A stretch of DNA of 5,284 bases from a virus. Position 1 is the stretch's first letter, and each line of letters begins with the position of its first letter. The position numbers and the translations under genes were made by a program. The notes beneath the pieces were generated by a model that saw nothing but the letters and a program-made list of their open reading frames with translations, did no database searches and was not told where the DNA came from. Below are positions 1 through 5,284 of the stretch, one piece after another. The stretch is from positions 1 to 5,284 of IMG/VR virus record IMGVR_UViG_3300045988_004808. One strand, given 5' to 3'.

Positions 1-55
1 AATACCATTACGGAGAACAGAACATAAGATTTTACGCTTGCGGCGAGTACGGAAG
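1..55. repeat. Terminal redundancy left copy, identical to 5230-5284; marks the circular junction of a 5229-bp genome
   Basis: A 55-nt exact match with the window end, read directly from the sequence. It lies inside the rep coding frame, so it is an artefact of linearising a circle rather than a biological repeat. Confidence 0.9.
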
Positions 56-623
56 CCACACAGCAAGACCACACTACCACATAATTGCATTTAATCTGAA
101 AATACATGACCTGCAACCATGCGGAAGAAGCAAAAGCGGCAAGATGCAATGGGATAGCCCAGCAATCCGAAAAATTTGGGGAAAAGGGCTAACAGCATTA
201 GGTCATGTGGAATATGACAGTTGCGCATATGTCGCAAGATATATGCTAAAAAAACAGAAAGGAGAGAATGCAAAAGAATATTACGCAGAAATGGGACTCG
301 AACCAGAATTCACTAGATGCAGCCGCAGACCGGGCATTGCAGCAGGATATTTTGAACGGAACAAGGAAAAAATATATCATTATGACGAAATCGTGTTACC
401 GGGGAATAAGGTGGTAAGACCACCGAAATACTACGATAAGTTATACGATATCGAAAATCCAAAAGAACTTGAGGCAATAAAAAGTGCGCGCAAAGCGGCG
501 GCAAAGGAAGCAGAAAAGTTAGAGCTTGCAAAAACAACACTAACAAAGGGTGAATTGCTGGCACTCAAAGAGCGAACTGCAAAGGAAAAAGTAAAGAAGC
601 TTCCACGAGAGCTTAACGAATAA
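3..623 (+). CDS. VP4: Replication initiation protein (Rep/VP4-like HUH endonuclease), C-terminal part continuing from 4821..5284 across the circular junction. The window begins mid-gene; the whole gene is about 343 aa.
   Basis: The frame is open from position 3 and continuous with 4821..5284. Its translation contains FYACGEYGSHTARPHYHIIAFN (HUH motif, HYHII) and AYVARYMLKK (catalytic Tyr motif Y-x-x-x-Y/K), and it ends at TAA 621-623. The track ORF 144..623 is only the portion after an internal Met. Confidence 0.88.
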   Translation, partial: YHYGEQNIRFYACGEYGSHTARPHYHIIAFNLKIHDLQPCGRSKSGKMQWDSPAIRKIWGKGLTALGHVEYDSCAYVARYMLKKQKGENAKEYYAEMGLEPEFTRCSRRPGIAAGYFERNKEKIYHYDEIVLPGNKVVRPPKYYDKLYDIENPKELEAIKSARKAAAKEAEKLELAKTTLTKGELLALKERTAKEKVKKLPRELNE

Positions 624-629
624 CCAAAC

Positions 630-680
630 AAAGGGGGCACGCCCCCTTTACCCCCTTGTAAAAGGGGGGTTTTATTTATA
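630..680 (+). terminator. Two tandem GC-rich stem-loops immediately after the rep stop codon, the second followed by a T-rich run (rho-independent terminator-like)
   Basis: In the first, AAAGGGGGC (630-638) pairs with GCCCCCTTT (641-649). In the second, CCCCCTT (651-657) pairs with AAGGGGG (662-668) across a GTAA loop, followed by GTTTTATTTATA. Confidence 0.6.
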
Positions 681-738
681 CAAAAAGCATTATGCAAATT
701 GCGAAAAAATTTAATGACACAATTAGTAAAATAGAGAA

Positions 739-767
739 TAGAAAAACAAAAACAAAACACATATAAT
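739..767 (+). promoter_or_regulatory. Candidate promoter. A perfect TATAAT -10 hexamer lies at 762-767, with a weak -35-like TAGAAA at 739-744. Upstream is an A-tract repeat (AAAAACAAAAACAAAAC, 741-757).
   Basis: The AT-rich intergenic region sits about 25 nt upstream of the first SD and ATG of the gene string. The -35 element is poor, so confidence is low. Confidence 0.3.
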
Positions 768-791
768 CAATGTTGAAAGGAGGTGGAAAAA

Positions 792-905
792 ATGACGAAC
801 CTTAAAAGCGAAAGAAAAGATAAGCAAGTGTTCAAAGAAACCGCAGCGAAAACCAAGAAAATCAACATCGCACCGAAAGTAATGCGGGGCGGCATCAGAC
901 TGTAA
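792..905 (+). CDS. Small, highly basic protein (37 aa, MTNLKSERKDKQVFKETAAKTKKINIAPKVMRGGIRL). Probably the DNA-binding/packaging protein, analogous to phiX174 J and gokushovirus ORF8.
   Basis: SD GGAGG at 779-783 sits 8 nt before ATG 792. About 11 of 37 residues are K/R, and the size and position match microvirus J/ORF8 proteins. The C-terminal RGGIRL resembles the C-terminus of chlamydiaphage ORF8, recalled from memory and not checked. It is not in the ORF track because it is under 60 aa. Confidence 0.6.
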   Translation: MTNLKSERKDKQVFKETAAKTKKINIAPKVMRGGIRL

Positions 906-926
906 ACAAGCAAAGGAGAAAAGACA

Positions 927-1184
927 ATGAAAACCAACATCTACGCATTCAAAGACACCAAAATAGGCTTTATGCAGCCATTCCTCCAGCAGAACGAAGC
1001 AGTAGCCATGCGAACACTCAAAATGGCCGTGAACGATGAACACAGCCAAATCCGAAACATGGCCGAAGATATCCAATTGTACCAGCTCGGAACCTTTGAC
1101 GATGATACCGGGGAAATCGTACCGGAGGTAAAATTTATCGCAAACGCAATCGACCATAAGGAGGTGAATACCAATAGAGATTAA
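927..1184 (+). CDS. Hypothetical protein, 85 aa. Possibly a VP5-like nonstructural protein, but the function is not recognised.
   Basis: SD AAAGGAG at 912-918 sits 8 nt before ATG 927. It is on the coding strand within the gene string. Its 3' end contains the very strong SD AAGGAGGTG (1158-1166) that serves the next ORF. Confidence 0.55.
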   Translation: MKTNIYAFKDTKIGFMQPFLQQNEAVAMRTLKMAVNDEHSQIRNMAEDIQLYQLGTFDDDTGEIVPEVKFIANAIDHKEVNTNRD

Positions 1185-1347
1185 CGAAATCGTAAACATA
1201 ATCGGAACAATCGGCTTTCCTTGCGTAATTGCACTGCTGCTCCTAAAAAACAATCAGGAGCAAATAGACGTAATCAGAGAGAACACAAAGGTAATTCAGG
1301 CACTGGCCGACCGTATCGACAATGTACTTTCAAAAGGGGATGATTAA
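1168..1347 (+). CDS. Holin-like small membrane protein (BhlA/UviB-like architecture). The frame is open from 1168 but has no ATG/GTG/TTG; candidate starts are ATA 1174 and ATT 1180. Translation: ..INEIVNIIGTIGFPCVIALLLLKNNQEQIDVIRENTKVIQALADRIDNVLSKGDD.
   Basis: It has one roughly 20-residue hydrophobic segment followed by a charged C-terminal tail. A perfect SD AAGGAGGTG (1158-1166) lies 9 nt upstream of ATA 1174. The stop TAA 1345-1347 abuts the GTG start of the amidase, a holin-endolysin arrangement. Confidence 0.45.
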   Translation: MPIEINEIVNIIGTIGFPCVIALLLLKNNQEQIDVIRENTKVIQALADRIDNVLSKGDD

Positions 1348-1956
1348 GTGAGACTTCACACACAGACAGCATACAAAAACGCTTGTTACCAAGAAGGGCA
1401 AAAGATGAAACCGAAAGGCATCATGATACATTCGACAGGGGCAAACAATCCGAACCTGAGGCGGTATGTAGGACCAGATGATGGCATACTTGGAAAGAAC
1501 ATCTACAACAACCATTGGAACAACGCCTATCCGGGCGGGAAAGCAATCTGCTGCCATGCATTCATCGGCAAAGACAAAAACGGAGAAGTCCGAACTTATC
1601 AAATTCTGCCGTGGAGCATGGTAGGCTGGCACTGTGGAGGTAAGGCAAACAAAACCCATATTGGAATTGAAATCTGCGAAGACACCACAAGCAACGAACA
1701 CTTCAAAGAAACATTCCGAGAAGCCGTAGAAGTAGCAGCTTATCTATGCAAACTATATCAACTCCAACCGAAAAACATTATCAGCCACAAAGAAGGAAAC
1801 GCAAAAGGCCTAGCAAGTAACCATGGAGATCCGGAACATTGGTGGAAAAATTACGGTATCGACATGAGCGATTTCCGAAACGAAGTAGCAAAAGAACTTG
1901 ACAGGCAAAAAGTATACCATGCAATGATTTATGACACGAAAGGAGCAAACGAATGA
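1348..1956 (+). CDS. N-acetylmuramoyl-L-alanine amidase, amidase_2/PGRP family (PlyG/XlyA/CwlA-like endolysin). Catalytic domain only, 202 aa.
   Basis: Motifs MKPKGIMIHSTGAN, GWHCGG, HIGIEICE and IISHKEG...HGDPEHW line up with YITVHNTAN, GWHAG, SIGIEICEN and VVPHKYWSGKECP of Bacillus XlyA. The N-terminal region resembles PlyG (KYGTKCPYTMKPKYITVHNT); both comparator sequences are recalled from memory. SD AAAGGGGA sits 8 nt before GTG 1348. The stop overlaps the VP3 start as ATGA. Confidence 0.8.
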   Translation: MRLHTQTAYKNACYQEGQKMKPKGIMIHSTGANNPNLRRYVGPDDGILGKNIYNNHWNNAYPGGKAICCHAFIGKDKNGEVRTYQILPWSMVGWHCGGKANKTHIGIEICEDTTSNEHFKETFREAVEVAAYLCKLYQLQPKNIISHKEGNAKGLASNHGDPEHWWKNYGIDMSDFRNEVAKELDRQKVYHAMIYDTKGANE

Positions 1957-2450
1957 ACTTTTATAGCCGACTTAATCCAGCGCCGGTAATCGAAGCGCCG
2001 GCAGGAAGCAAAGAAGCAACAACCTACCAAACACAGATTGACGAGAACGGACACAAAGTAACAGTGCCAATCGGAAAGACAAACATCTATGACCGCATTC
2101 AAAGCAGCCTAGAGGAGACCAAAATTGAGAACATCATCAAACGGTTTACCGAAGGTGATATCTCGGCATTCAGGCAGGGCGAGCCACTGTATGCAGACAT
2201 GACCGAAGCACCACGAACACTGATGGAAGCACAAAACATGATTATCCGCATTACGAATGAATTTAACAATCTGCCGGTAGAGGTAAGGGCTAAATTTGAC
2301 CACAGTCCAGAAAAATACGTTGCACTGTACGGCGGCGAAGAGTGGGCAAAGGCTATAGGCTATGAAACCAAAAAAGCCGACACAGGCGAAATTCAGGGCG
2401 CTGGTGACGTAAGCACCGAACCTATTCCGAAACAGGAGGAGAAAGCATGA
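1953..2450 (+). CDS. VP3: Internal scaffolding protein VP3 (gokushovirus-type), 165 aa
   Basis: SD AGGAG at 1941-1945 sits 7 nt before ATG 1953. The motif MEAQNMIIRITNEFNNLPVEVRAKFDHSPEKYV matches the conserved VP3 scaffold signature (A-Q-x-I-I-R..F..LP..VR..F). It lies directly upstream of VP1 with ATGA start/stop coupling. Confidence 0.78.
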   Translation: MNFYSRLNPAPVIEAPAGSKEATTYQTQIDENGHKVTVPIGKTNIYDRIQSSLEETKIENIIKRFTEGDISAFRQGEPLYADMTEAPRTLMEAQNMIIRITNEFNNLPVEVRAKFDHSPEKYVALYGGEEWAKAIGYETKKADTGEIQGAGDVSTEPIPKQEEKA

Positions 2451-4105
2451 ACAGAAACACCGAAAGCCATTTTTCAGTAAATCCGATTAACCTTGATATC
2501 CAGCGAAGCAAATTTGTAAGACCGAGTACGCATAAGACCACATTCAACGCCGGAAACCTCATTCCGATTTATGTTGATGAAGTACTACCGGGCGATACCT
2601 TCAAGATGAATATGAGCAGCGTCATCCGTATGAGTACGCCTATATATCCTGTAATGGATAACGCCAACATGGATGTATATTTCTTCTTTGTACCTAACCG
2701 ACTTGTGTGGTATCACTGGAAAGAGTTTTTTGGAGAAAACAATACCACGCACTGGGAGCAACCGGTAGAATACGAAGCACCGCAAATCACCGCACCGGCG
2801 GGCGGATGGGCAAAAGGAACTATTGCCGACTATATGGGCATTCCAACGAAAATCGAAAACATCAGCGTACAGGCACTGCCATTCCGAGCATACTGTAAAA
2901 TCTGGAATGACTGGTTCAGAGACCAAAACTTGAAAGACCCTGCCATGATATCCATGGATGAAACGACAACGGCAGGAGCAAACACAGGAGACTATGTAAC
3001 CAATGCAGAGAAAGGAGCACTTCCTCTCAAAGTCGCAAAATACCATGACTATTTCACTGCAGCACTACCTGAACCTCAGAAAGGACCGGAAGTAACTATC
3101 GGCGCAGTAAACGGATATATACCGATTGTTACAAGGAACGAATTGGCAACAAATAGCACGACCAATGCACTAAGATGGAATGTAAACGGAAACACACCGA
3201 GTGCCCTATTAGTAGGCATAGCAACAGGAAAGAACACAGACGGAACGTCTAATACATTCACACCAAACACCGGCGGAAACGCGACATTTACAGGAAACAT
3301 TACACCGGCAAACCTGTGGGCAGAAATGGGTAACAATAGTGCGACCAGCATTAACGCTCTGCGACAGGCATTCGCAATTCAGAGATTGTACGAGAAAAAC
3401 GCACGCGGCGGTACTCGTTATATCGAGATTATCAAAGCACACTTCGGAGTACAGTCACCGGATGCCAGACAGCAGCGAAGCGAATATCTGGGCGGCACTC
3501 GAGTACCTATCAACATGGATCAGGTGGTACAGACCTCCAATTCCGGAGACGGTATCACACCGCAGGGCAACACGGCAGCATACTCTCTGACAGCATTCAA
3601 TGAAAGCATGTTCACCAAATCGTTTACCGAACACGGTTACATCATCGGACTGGCATGTATCAGAACTGAGCACACCTACCAACAGGGAATTGAGCGGTTT
3701 TGGAGCAGAAAGAAGATGCTGGACTACTACTTCCCAACTTTGGCAAACCTCGGAGAGCAAGCAATCCTGAACAAAGAAATCTATGCACAGGGCAACGCAA
3801 CGGACGATGAAGCATTCGGCTATCAGGAAGCATGGGCAGAATATCGGTACAAGCCGAGCAGAGTATCCGGAGCAATGCGAAGCAACTATCAGGCAACATT
3901 GGATGCATGGCACTATGCAGACAAGTACACCAAACAGCCTATCCTGTCGAGTGAATGGATTGACGAAACAAGCGCGAACATCGATAGAACACTTGCCGTT
4001 CAGAGCACAACCGAAGACCAATTTATTGCAGACTTTTATTTTGCATGTGAAGCAACAAGGCCTATGCCTCTGTATAGCATTCCCGGCCTGATTGACCATC
4101 ACTAA
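2447..4105 (+). CDS. VP1: Major capsid protein VP1 (microvirus F-protein fold, gokushovirus-type), 552 aa
   Basis: The N-terminal signature is IQRSKFVRPSTHKTTFNAGNLIPIYVDEVLPGDTF. Further motifs are MSTPIYPVMDN, FFFVPNRLVW, APAGGW, DYMGIPTK and LRQAFAIQRLYE...RYIEIIKAHFGV, which is a classic Microviridae VP1. SD AGGAGGAG lies upstream. Confidence 0.95.
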   Translation: MNRNTESHFSVNPINLDIQRSKFVRPSTHKTTFNAGNLIPIYVDEVLPGDTFKMNMSSVIRMSTPIYPVMDNANMDVYFFFVPNRLVWYHWKEFFGENNTTHWEQPVEYEAPQITAPAGGWAKGTIADYMGIPTKIENISVQALPFRAYCKIWNDWFRDQNLKDPAMISMDETTTAGANTGDYVTNAEKGALPLKVAKYHDYFTAALPEPQKGPEVTIGAVNGYIPIVTRNELATNSTTNALRWNVNGNTPSALLVGIATGKNTDGTSNTFTPNTGGNATFTGNITPANLWAEMGNNSATSINALRQAFAIQRLYEKNARGGTRYIEIIKAHFGVQSPDARQQRSEYLGGTRVPINMDQVVQTSNSGDGITPQGNTAAYSLTAFNESMFTKSFTEHGYIIGLACIRTEHTYQQGIERFWSRKKMLDYYFPTLANLGEQAILNKEIYAQGNATDDEAFGYQEAWAEYRYKPSRVSGAMRSNYQATLDAWHYADKYTKQPILSSEWIDETSANIDRTLAVQSTTEDQFIADFYFACEATRPMPLYSIPGLIDHH

Positions 4106-4119
4106 AGGAGGGGCAAACA

Positions 4120-4731
4120 ATGGCAGGAAGTAGAGGCCGAGGCATATTTGGAAGAGATAAAAATCTCGTTCAAGCAGGACAAAAAGCAGTAGATGCAGCT
4201 ATAAGCGGATTAGGTCTTACACTCAATCCAATTGCTAACACCACAGCAACAGCAGAAGCGGCATTCAACAAAAGCCAAATGAGCGCAGAACAGGCAATGG
4301 CCTTCGAAGCCAGCCAAGCAGCACAACAGATGGCATTCCAACGAGAAATGCTCCAAAATCAAATGCGGTTTAACAGCGCAGAAGCAGAAACCAACAGAGC
4401 ATGGCAAAGGGAAATGAGGCAAACAGCCTACCAAGACACAGTAAAAGACATGGTAAAAGCCGGAATAAATCCAATACTGGCAGCACAGTTAGGAGCAACC
4501 GGCCTATCAGGTGGAAGCACTGCAAGCGCAGGACTTGCAAGCGGAGCAATGGCCAGCGGCCACACAGCACAAATGCAACAGCAAACCGTACCGGATATCA
4601 TCCGAAACATCGGATATGCCATCACAACGGCAAAAGAAGCGGCAAAAGGACTGGAGGGATACACGAAAGAACTGGCCAATGAAAAACTCGACCGCTACGC
4701 AAAACAGGCAATCGGAAGTGTAAAAGGCTAA
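4120..4731 (+). CDS. VP2: Minor capsid / DNA pilot protein VP2, 203 aa
   Basis: SD AAAGGAGGGG sits 6-7 nt before ATG 4120. The protein is Gly/Ala/Gln-rich with the conserved gokushovirus VP2 core FNSAEAETNRAWQREMRQTAYQDTVKDMVKAGINPILAAQ. It lies immediately downstream of VP1. Confidence 0.82.
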   Translation: MAGSRGRGIFGRDKNLVQAGQKAVDAAISGLGLTLNPIANTTATAEAAFNKSQMSAEQAMAFEASQAAQQMAFQREMLQNQMRFNSAEAETNRAWQREMRQTAYQDTVKDMVKAGINPILAAQLGATGLSGGSTASAGLASGAMASGHTAQMQQQTVPDIIRNIGYAITTAKEAAKGLEGYTKELANEKLDRYAKQAIGSVKG

Positions 4732-4738
4732 ATTTTGT

Positions 4739-4800
4739 GTCAGTCAGCCCCATTGTAACAAGGTGACAATGGGGCTGACTGACCGGCCGCACAGCGGCCG
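4739..4800 (+). promoter_or_regulatory. A perfect 17-bp inverted repeat (GTCAGTCAGCCCCATTG 4739-4755 pairing with CAATGGGGCTGACTGAC 4767-4783, 11-nt loop) is followed by a 7-bp GC hairpin (CGGCCGC 4784-4790, GCGGCCG 4794-4800). There is no U-tract.
   Basis: Read directly from the sequence. Both hairpins sit between the VP2 stop and the rep SD. They are candidates for a complementary-strand priming site on the ssDNA, or a regulatory structure for rep. Confidence 0.55.
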
Positions 4801-4820
4801 AGGGAAAGGAGGTGAAAACT

Positions 4821-5284
4821 TTGCCATGTTATCATCCTTTGCGGCGATGGTGGTGGGGTGAGACCGACCAAGACGGAAAGCAAATCAACGCCAAAATCAC
4901 AAGCTGGGAAGTTGATACTCTATTCGAAAGGCCGATAGGCTTTGGAAAAATCCGGGGGCAATGGTCATCGGAAGAATGGAGCGAGGAAATACCATGCGGC
5001 AAATGCATAGGATGCCGACTTGAGTATAGTAGACAATGGGCGAACCGCTGTATGCTGGAAGCACAAGAATGGCCGGAAAACTGGTTTATCACTCTGACAT
5101 ACGATGATGCACATTTACCATTCAAAGAACGCATCGACACCAAGACCGGCGAAATGATGGAAGAATTCACACCGTCATTATATCCGCCGGACATTACAAA
5201 GTTTATGAAAGACCTCCGGCGGTACTGGAAATACCATTACGGAGAACAGAACATAAGATTTTACGCTTGCGGCGAGTACGGAAG
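4821..5284 (+). CDS. VP4: Replication initiation protein (Rep/VP4), N-terminal part. It starts at TTG 4821 (MPCYHPLRRWWWGETDQ...) and continues through the window end and across the circular junction into 3..623.
   Basis: SD GGAAAGGAGGTG at 4803-4814 sits 8 nt before TTG 4821. The N-terminus MPCYHPL is the canonical Microviridae Rep start. FITLTYDD is HUH motif 1. The frame runs open to 5284 and matches the frame at window positions 3-623 after subtracting 5229. Confidence 0.85.
   Translation, partial: MPCYHPLRRWWWGETDQDGKQINAKITSWEVDTLFERPIGFGKIRGQWSSEEWSEEIPCGKCIGCRLEYSRQWANRCMLEAQEWPENWFITLTYDDAHLPFKERIDTKTGEMMEEFTPSLYPPDITKFMKDLRRYWKYHYGEQNIRFYACGEYG
5230..5284. repeat. Terminal redundancy right copy, identical to 1-55
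   Basis: A 55-nt exact match with the window start. Confidence 0.9.

Follow-up and report, generated by a model that had tools for sequence, protein, structure and literature searches.

A conserved hairpin cassette as a candidate rolling-circle origin of gokushoviruses, inverted relative to the genes in some lineages

Two adjoining hairpins between VP2 and rep

We analyzed a stretch of 5,284 nucleotides (nt) of viral DNA, positions 1 to 5,284 of the IMG/VR record IMGVR_UViG_3300045988_004808 (hereafter the window), and in particular a pair of hairpins lying between the genes for VP2 and for the replication protein (Rep, also VP4). The window is a circular gokushovirus assembly whose first 55 nt (1-55) recur exactly at 5230-5284, giving a true length of ~5229 nt, and all of its recognisable genes are on the plus strand. 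Genes were assigned from the open reading frames (ORFs) of the window and their translations, from Pfam and from the annotation of 90%-identical records. Upstream of the hairpins is a VP2-like ORF (4120-4731), and downstream is rep, which runs through the overlap junction (4821-5284, then 56-623 past the 55-nt overlap) and encodes 343 amino acids from a TTG start, (M)PCYHPL.... VP4 matches the Pfam family PF23343 REP_ORF2-G2P (E = 1.3e-19), and its residues H161, H163, Y213 and Y217 (HYH and YVARY) are invariant across 37 homologues (alignment A1). It is an HUH endonuclease, and is presumed to be the enzyme that acts on the element described here.

The larger hairpin has 18 perfect base pairs, with its 5' arm (in plus-strand sense) at 4739-4756 and its 3' arm at 4766-4783, enclosing a 9-nt loop that reads AACAAGGTG on the plus strand. 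A first-pass annotation of the sequence had described it as a perfect hairpin of 17 bp; it is real and perfect, but the stem is 18 bp long, and the arms reach 21 nt if one mismatch is allowed. No other inverted repeat of 10 nt or more (within 200 nt) occurs in the genome. Directly abutting it at 4784-4800 is a second hairpin of 7 bp, CGGCCGC-aca-GCGGCCG, the GC hairpin that the same annotation had placed between VP2 and the ribosome-binding site of rep. Both hairpins indeed sit between the VP2 stop codon and the Shine-Dalgarno sequence (SD) of rep (AAAGGAGGTGA, 4806-4816, plus strand). The spacing from this SD to the rep start codon is constant among relatives, while the codon itself is TTG in the window (4821), L003 and L004 and ATG in L001 (2384), L005 and L006.

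Folding as single-stranded DNA, the check proposed in the first-pass annotation, found both hairpins to be very stable, with the rep SD unpaired with them. The region 4725-4830 folds at -35.5 kcal/mol (z = -8.9), a stability equalled by none of 200 shuffles, and both DNA strands fold, at about -32 to -35 kcal/mol (z ~ -8 to -9). The SD lies outside both hairpins in DNA and RNA folds alike. As had been noted, no U-tract follows: the next bases are AGGGAAAGGAGG, and there is no U/T run directly after the hairpin on either strand (plus, AGGGAAAGG; minus, ACAAAATTTAGC). The site is also missing from the list of a terminator scan, in agreement with the earlier view that it is not a standard intrinsic terminator. 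That candidate is ruled out by the lack of a T-run and by a proper terminator at 650-670. Rfam 15 gave no match overlapping 4700-4830, even at E up to 1.

A cassette conserved across gokushoviruses

Both hairpins are kept in eight GenBank relatives of 78-90% genome identity and in several metagenomic ones, even where the VP2 C-terminus has diverged. L007 and L008 carry a compensatory A:T to C:G change in the stem of the larger hairpin, and in these two genomes the smaller one is swapped for an unrelated AT-rich hairpin of the same shape (CAAAATTGCtttGCAATTTTG; CAAAATTGC-aaa-GCAATTTTG). The first-pass annotation had held that absence of a comparable structure from related genomes, or stem mutations without compensation, would argue against a functional element; what we found is that relatives retain the structure, with compensatory changes.

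More distant relatives were sought with aligned VP4 homologues as the query against IMG/VR, metagenome contigs and GTDB genomes; such an alignment was needed to reach further than a single-protein locus search that retrieved close relatives only. A scan of IMG/VR for the exact motif CCCCATTGTAACAAGG likewise found only two close relatives together with chance matches in unrelated contigs. Read in the sense of rep, the longest perfect hairpin of most gokushovirus genomes has a common anatomy, namely a variable stem typically ending in ..CAGTTAC, a loop containing (C/T)(T/A)CTTG(A/T)T and then TGACA(C/G) just 3' of the stem. A pattern based on sequence only (CTTG[AT][TC], then 6-30 nt, then TGACA[CG]) matched in 142 of 163 gokushovirus genomes, and 84% of the matches fall within a loop closed by a perfect stem of 7 bp or more, compared with 2% of control CTTG[AT][TC] sites. 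Among 46 aligned cassettes (alignment A3), both-sided changes occur at 14 of the 16 stem pairs and 92% of cells are paired, against 27-39% in slid-partner controls; none of 500 shuffles attained the observed values, which indicates selection on the structure. The stems vary, whereas neither CTTG nor TGA, nor the spacing between them, changes in alignments A3 and A4, and the C and A that follow TGA are at least 90% conserved in both, a pattern that speaks for recognition of specific sequence.

The cassette lies on the coding strand of all three cultured gokushoviruses checked: Chp2 (2904-2941, loop TCTACTTGAT), phiMH2K (L183; 3296-3335) and SpV4 (512-544). Its invariant parts are common to phages of Chlamydia, Spiroplasma, Bdellovibrio, gut Clostridia and marine bacteria, and its distance to rep ranges from 20 nt to >1000 nt among gokushoviruses, the Chp2 cassette being located between VP3 and ORF8. 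The cassette is therefore not specific to one lineage but conserved across gokushoviruses. In 30% of 100 dereplicated cassettes, compared with 4% of control windows, the main hairpin is immediately preceded on its 5' side by another that is small and perfect, and that of L112 is nearly identical to the one in our window and occupies the same position (CGGCCGCGtatCGCGGCCG; CGGCCGCG-tat-CGCGGCCG). As a separate observation, the cassette is present twice, one genome length apart, in L042, L045, L053, L057, L059, L080, L088, L090, L152, L155, L164 and L176; these public 'viral contigs' therefore exceed unit length, as concatemers or through long terminal overlaps, and their stated genome sizes are inflated.

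The same data bear on whether the element acts in the transcript, by leaky termination or attenuation, as a target of RNase III or by stabilising a 3' end, and so keeps rep expression low. The element lies between VP2 and rep, no promoter-like site intervenes, and the RNA fold of the hairpin region is very stable (-55.4 kcal/mol, z = -7.9), all of which would suit such a role; since transcripts of either cassette orientation form the stem, a secondary role is possible. However, there is no U-tract, the SD is unpaired in the predicted folds, and a conventional terminator with a T-run is present after rep at 650-670. An RNA-level function also fails to account for the invariance of loop and flank, whose reverse complement is what the mRNA carries in the inverted lineages described below, and for the link to strand composition found there, and it sits poorly with a position relative to rep that varies from 20 nt to >1 kb and, in Chp2, falls between VP3 and ORF8. 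We consider it unlikely as the main role. The earlier suggestion that the hairpins occlude the SD or otherwise regulate rep is not supported, the SD being outside both hairpins in the folds and the cassette lying 20 to >1000 nt from rep elsewhere.

A palindrome that is perfect and immediately upstream of rep could also be a double-stranded operator, bound by a dimeric repressor or by Rep to regulate rep transcription, with strand identity irrelevant. The Rep of some rolling-circle replicons autoregulates at its origin. An operator is nevertheless very unlikely here: the arms covary for pairing and do not keep a half-site sequence, conservation is highest in the asymmetric loop and flank, the element is not overlapped by any promoter-like site, and an operator again gives no account of why orientation and composition go together.

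The transcriptional setting is as follows. The remaining genes of the window, all on the plus strand, are a small basic ORF of 37 amino acids (792-905), VP5 (927-1184), an Amidase_2 protein (1348-1956; Pfam Amidase_2, E = 8e-18), the VP3 scaffold (1953-2450) and the VP1 capsid (2447-4105). Two GC hairpins lie within 626-670, directly after the rep stop codon, and the second (ACCCCCTTGTAAAAGGGGGGT) is followed by the T-run TTTTATTTAT; the terminator scan reports 650-670, which is likely an intrinsic terminator. The best promoter-like site of the genome, TAGAAA-17-TATAAT at 739-767, is found ahead of the 37-residue ORF, and these two features suggest one long transcription unit that ends after rep. 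The product of 1348-1956, an N-acetylmuramoyl-L-alanine amidase that appears only as 'hypothetical protein' in related GenBank records, is a probable endolysin of a gokushovirus.

Relatives at ~50% Rep identity occur as prophages integrated into the genomes of Clostridia (Christensenella, Lachnospiraceae, Oscillospiraceae and others), and those of L016 and L020 adjoin serS and a tyrosine-recombinase gene. In enterogokushoviruses a dif motif is located between VP2 and VP4/VP5, near the VP4 N-terminus (PMC7062461). Both the integrated relatives and this dif position would suit a reading of the palindrome as a dif-like target of XerC/XerD. Against it, the cassette is internal in prophages L016, L020 and L189, between VP2 and rep, with the junctions elsewhere; L016 is flanked by CTGTGTTTTGCGAATAGTTT repeats and L189 by AACTATTCGTAAAATACA. 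The architecture differs as well, with 18-bp arms and a 9-nt spacer compared with the 11-6-11 arrangement (~28 bp) of dif, and the window has no copy of the att-like repeat above chance level. A role in integration is thus extremely improbable, and a dif/att site as such is ruled out by the prophage junctions of L016 and L189 and by the lack of the att repeat in the window. The direct repeats flanking the prophages are of the type AACTATTCG(T/C)AAAA (L016, 3918-3945 and 9458-9485; L189, 3300 and 8497). The site in L239, at about 8423-8498, is palindromic with a 6-bp spacer, an arrangement like that of dif; no such site occurs in the window.

Cassette orientation and strand composition

Read on its minus strand, the window runs CGGCCGCtgtGCGGCCG-GTCAGTCAGCCCCATTGT-CACCTTGTT-ACAATGGGGCTGACTGAC-ACAAAAT, that is, the small hairpin, a hairpin with the nick motif CCTTGTT in its loop, and then TGACAC. 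The full gokushovirus origin-like cassette, GTCAGTCAGCCCCATTGT-CACCTTGTT-ACAATGGGGCTGACTGAC-ACAAAA, occupies 4733-4783 of this strand (covariance model R1, alignment A3). Its loop at 4757-4765, 5'-CACCTTGTT-3', contains the invariant CTTG as minus-strand bases 4762-4759, and the TGACAC box (GTGTCA on the plus strand, 4737-4742) lies ~20 nt 3' of CTTG at the fixed distance, partly within the stem. Seen from the minus strand, the small GC hairpin directly adjoins the nick hairpin on its 5' side, as an accessory to the cassette. R1, which was built solely from 33 forward cassettes of other phages, aligned at full length to the minus strand (4783-4733) with 55.1 bits and E = 3e-14, R1 E-values being rough; on the plus strand it reached 25.7 bits, from the palindromic stem only. 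In addition, the minus strand of the window has near-identical counterparts in the forward cassettes of L026, L027 and L112, and in L026 and L112 the match includes the small hairpin. Three sequences of a further alignment, A2, have wrong coordinates and are disregarded. The whole cassette in the window is inverted relative to the genes. The first-pass annotation had taken the plus strand to be the packaged one; the strand that carries the information is the minus strand.

The remaining members of the window clade also have inverted cassettes, as do L020/21, L022, L023/L114, L055, L102, L105-107, L109-111, L119, L120, L128 and L130 and, among GTDB contigs, L185, L186, L188, L189, L193, L195, L239 and L246. 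In most members of the window clade (L003-L006, L009 and L012) the plus-strand loop reads AACAAGGAGGC, with a perfect SD-like AAGGAGG and, 2 nt on, an ATG within the 3' arm; the AAGGAGG is probably a by-product of the nick motif CTCCTTG on the opposite strand.

Orientation was compared with strand composition using the skew (A-T)/(A+T) at four-fold degenerate sites of rep and VP1 on the coding strand, after dereplication at 90% Rep identity. The skew was positive in 21 of 22 lineages with inverted cassettes (median +0.46) and in 17 of 105 with forward cassettes (median -0.51), so that orientation predicts the sign of the skew (Fisher's exact p = 1e-12). Inverted and forward lineages are interleaved in a neighbour-joining tree of Rep, and all ten phylogenetically independent contrasts were concordant (sign test p = 0.001). 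An independent set from GTDB fitted the link in eight of eight cases. Within the Clostridia, prophages L189, L193, L195 and L239 are inverted and A-rich, while L190, L192, L200 and L201 are forward and T-rich; as orientation splits inside one host class in this way, the skew does not stem from host codon usage. T also prevails over A on the viral strand of phiX174 (T 31.3%, A 24.0%).

The direction of recent substitutions was compared in the same terms. Singleton substitutions at four-fold sites in the window clade comprised G>A at 7/39 and C>T at 2/45; the forward clade L025 gave C>T at 8/46 and G>A at 0/28, and the forward clade L074 C>T at 8/33 and G>A at 1/27. In all three clades these small counts tilt in the direction expected from the skew. 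Singleton counts over all sites were saturated and mixed. T-richness of the cassette strand is a strong tendency and no rule. Lineages that are forward and A-rich include phiMH2K (L183) as well as L054, L065, L092 and L069/L090/L149.

Since orientation tracks strand composition, these results suggest, by an indirect route, that the strand bearing the motif is the displaced single-stranded strand and the one that is packaged, so that the window clade would displace and package a strand antisense to every gene. At slightly better than even odds, in our judgement, the window lineage and at least ~10 other independently derived lineages flipped the cassette relative to their genes and would encapsidate the complement of their mRNA, that is, negative-sense DNA; their composition would then have re-equilibrated to the new packaged strand, and the polarity of a microvirus genome would depend on nothing but which way a cassette of ~70 nt points.

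A candidate viral-strand origin and its known counterparts

The loop consensus CTACTTGATG agrees at 8 of 10 positions, by manual count, with the phiX174 origin motif CAACTTG|ATA (CAACTTGATA). In GenBank the phiX174 origin is placed at 4306, the A after CAACTTG, within CAACTTGATATT. Over the 30-nt phiX174 origin the gapless identity is 15/30, including a GAC at the same distance from the nick, and a position weight matrix built from gokushovirus cassettes ranked the annotated phiX174 origin 10th of 10,772 positions. These likenesses to a proven cleavage site are suggestive rather than decisive, and homology to the phiX174 origin as a whole is only partly supported. The cassette also has the makings of a nick-hairpin origin, in that a cognate HUH endonuclease is encoded and an invariant loop motif is carried on a covarying stem. 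A loop and flank conserved in phages of very different hosts, together with the likeness to the phiX174 nick site, point to a viral-strand origin read by the phage Rep rather than to a site for host primase or primosome. We therefore consider the cassette, inverted in the window, to be most likely the viral-strand (rolling-circle) origin nicked by VP4, with a probability of roughly 60%.

Under this reading, the 18-bp palindrome would extrude or melt in the supercoiled replicative form, and VP4, encoded 37 nt downstream, would recognise the hairpin with its CTTG(T/A)T loop and the TGACAC box ~20 nt 3' of it. The enzyme would cut after CTTG, as protein A of phiX174 does at CAACTTG|ATA; the predicted nick falls on the minus strand between 4759 and 4758. 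The free 3'-OH would prime displacement synthesis, and after one round Rep would religate the displaced strand, which would then be packaged. With the cassette inverted relative to the genes, the strand nicked, displaced and encapsidated would be the complement of the mRNAs. The small GC hairpin may be an accessory Rep-binding element or an element for priming of the complementary strand. Our data show the hairpin structure, its conservation and covariation, the motif, the orientation of the cassette and the tie of orientation to strand composition; cleavage by VP4, the exact position of the nick and the polarity of virion DNA are inferred.

Conversion of the packaged strand to the replicative form could instead be what the hairpins serve, if they form a complementary-strand origin read by host primase, RNA polymerase or PriA. 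Every single-stranded DNA phage needs such a site and none was identified here; hairpins form on either strand, and a stable hairpin on the packaged strand, as expected of a single-strand origin, is present whichever strand that is. The link between orientation and composition would suit any element required on the viral strand, the small abutting hairpin has no assigned role, and hairpins upstream of Rep in other microvirus clades have tentatively been read in this way (PMC9865509). However, a host-read site should vary with the host and a site read by the phage Rep should not, and the loop and flank are invariant across hosts; the loop, moreover, fits the cleavage motif of the phiX174 Rep and not the phiX174 n' site. 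Inspection by eye of 4732-4800 showed no CS-6 of the ssoA type (TAGCGT), no dedicated search having been run. We regard a complementary-strand origin as rather unlikely. Were it true, the minus strand would still bear the site, contrary to the earlier assumption of the plus strand, and antisense packaging would still follow for the window clade. Of the first-pass proposal of a replication-linked hairpin equivalent to host primase or primosome sites, the part that stands is an element conserved and functional at the DNA level and tied to replication; the host-read assignment is the less likely part, given a loop and flank that are conserved across hosts and resemble the phiX174 nick site.

Several points tell against a VP4-nicked origin on the packaged strand. 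The nick site in gokushoviruses is assigned by analogy, the phiX174 origin has no hairpin, and the weight matrix ranked it 10th, not first. The association of orientation with composition equally fits a complementary-strand origin or a packaging signal on the viral strand. Seventeen of the 105 forward lineages are A-rich, among them the cultured phiMH2K (+0.33); the counts of substitution direction are small, with three of six clades giving no signal; and simple cytosine deamination was rejected as the cause of the skew, as the G/C asymmetry does not fit it. Finally, older papers on Chp2, SpV4 and phiMH2K, outside our literature search, may already mention the hairpin.

Within the full-text literature searched, which did not extend to older subscription papers, we found no description of a gokushovirus origin hairpin or cassette, a phiX174-like motif, cassette inversion or negative-sense microviruses. 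Rolling-circle origins with a nick motif in a loop, and hairpins upstream of Rep in two other microvirus clades, are already known (PMC9865509); what surprises is that the cassette has inverted repeatedly and that strand skew has followed. The viral-strand origin has been experimentally defined only for phiX174-like microviruses, and gokushoviruses are far more abundant, so that a ~50-nt cassette recognisable by sequence and structure provides a concrete candidate for them. The cassette is also a marker that predicts the virion strand from sequence alone, gives evidence of repeated polarity flips with strand composition following, and should help to orient and annotate metagenomic microvirus genomes and to design synthetic or resurrected gokushoviruses. 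If confirmed, the flips would overturn the assumption that all Microviridae are positive-sense, and would represent a natural experiment on the causes of strand asymmetry in single-stranded DNA viruses and on replication head-on into transcription.

Among known systems, the phiX174 origin, with its protein A site CAACTTG|ATATTAATAACACTATAGACCAC, shares with the gokushovirus cassette the ACTTGAT core and, equally far from the nick, a GAC box, and serves an HUH Rep with two tyrosines, as in the YVARY of VP4 here. The tyrosine motif of phiX174 protein A is YVAKY. The strand nicked in phiX174 is the one packaged; its packaging begins at the origin, requires nothing else in cis and is coupled to displacement synthesis (PMC13386984). 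Unlike the cassette, however, the phiX174 origin is inside gene A, lacks a hairpin and is always on the coding strand, whereas the gokushovirus motif is found in the loop of a long covarying intergenic hairpin, in the window lineage on the non-coding strand, and its cleavage is predicted.

The double-strand origins of rolling-circle plasmids (pC194/pUB110 and pMV158) likewise place a nick motif in a hairpin loop beside rep and use an HUH initiator. The pC194/pUB110 family is nicked at CTTG|ATA, with the same CTTG core, and pMV158 is nicked in the loop of a hairpin. These plasmids differ in having Rep_1 or Rep_2 proteins, compared with PF23343 here, where the replicon is a phage and the displaced strand would be encapsidated; no iterons or bind locus were identified. 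In rolling-circle plasmids a separate single-strand origin is often adjacent (PMC5714925). The stem-loop origin of CRESS-DNA viruses resembles the cassette in that a short conserved nick motif, in the loop of a covarying stem beside rep, determines which strand enters the virion; neither the motif nor the Rep lineage is related, and ambisense layouts are routine in those viruses but undescribed for the Microviridae.

The n'/PriA site of phiX174 and the primase hairpins of G4, the analogy drawn in the first-pass annotation, are also intergenic hairpins on packaged single-stranded DNA. These complementary-strand origins are specific to host factors and not conserved between the two phages, in contrast to a gokushovirus cassette that is conserved across unrelated hosts and bears a Rep-type motif. 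Also comparable are the conserved hairpins with compensatory substitutions found just upstream of Rep in reekeekee- and roodoodooviruses, the function of which was left open (PMC9865509); they belong to other clades, no shared motif has been reported, and orientation and composition were outside that study (PMC9865509). For the inversions themselves there is a parallel in animal mitochondrial genomes, where inversions of the origin reverse strand skew (PMC13602327). The replication system is unrelated, making this an analogy only, but in both cases a strand-defining element is flipped and the skew then flips relative to the genes.

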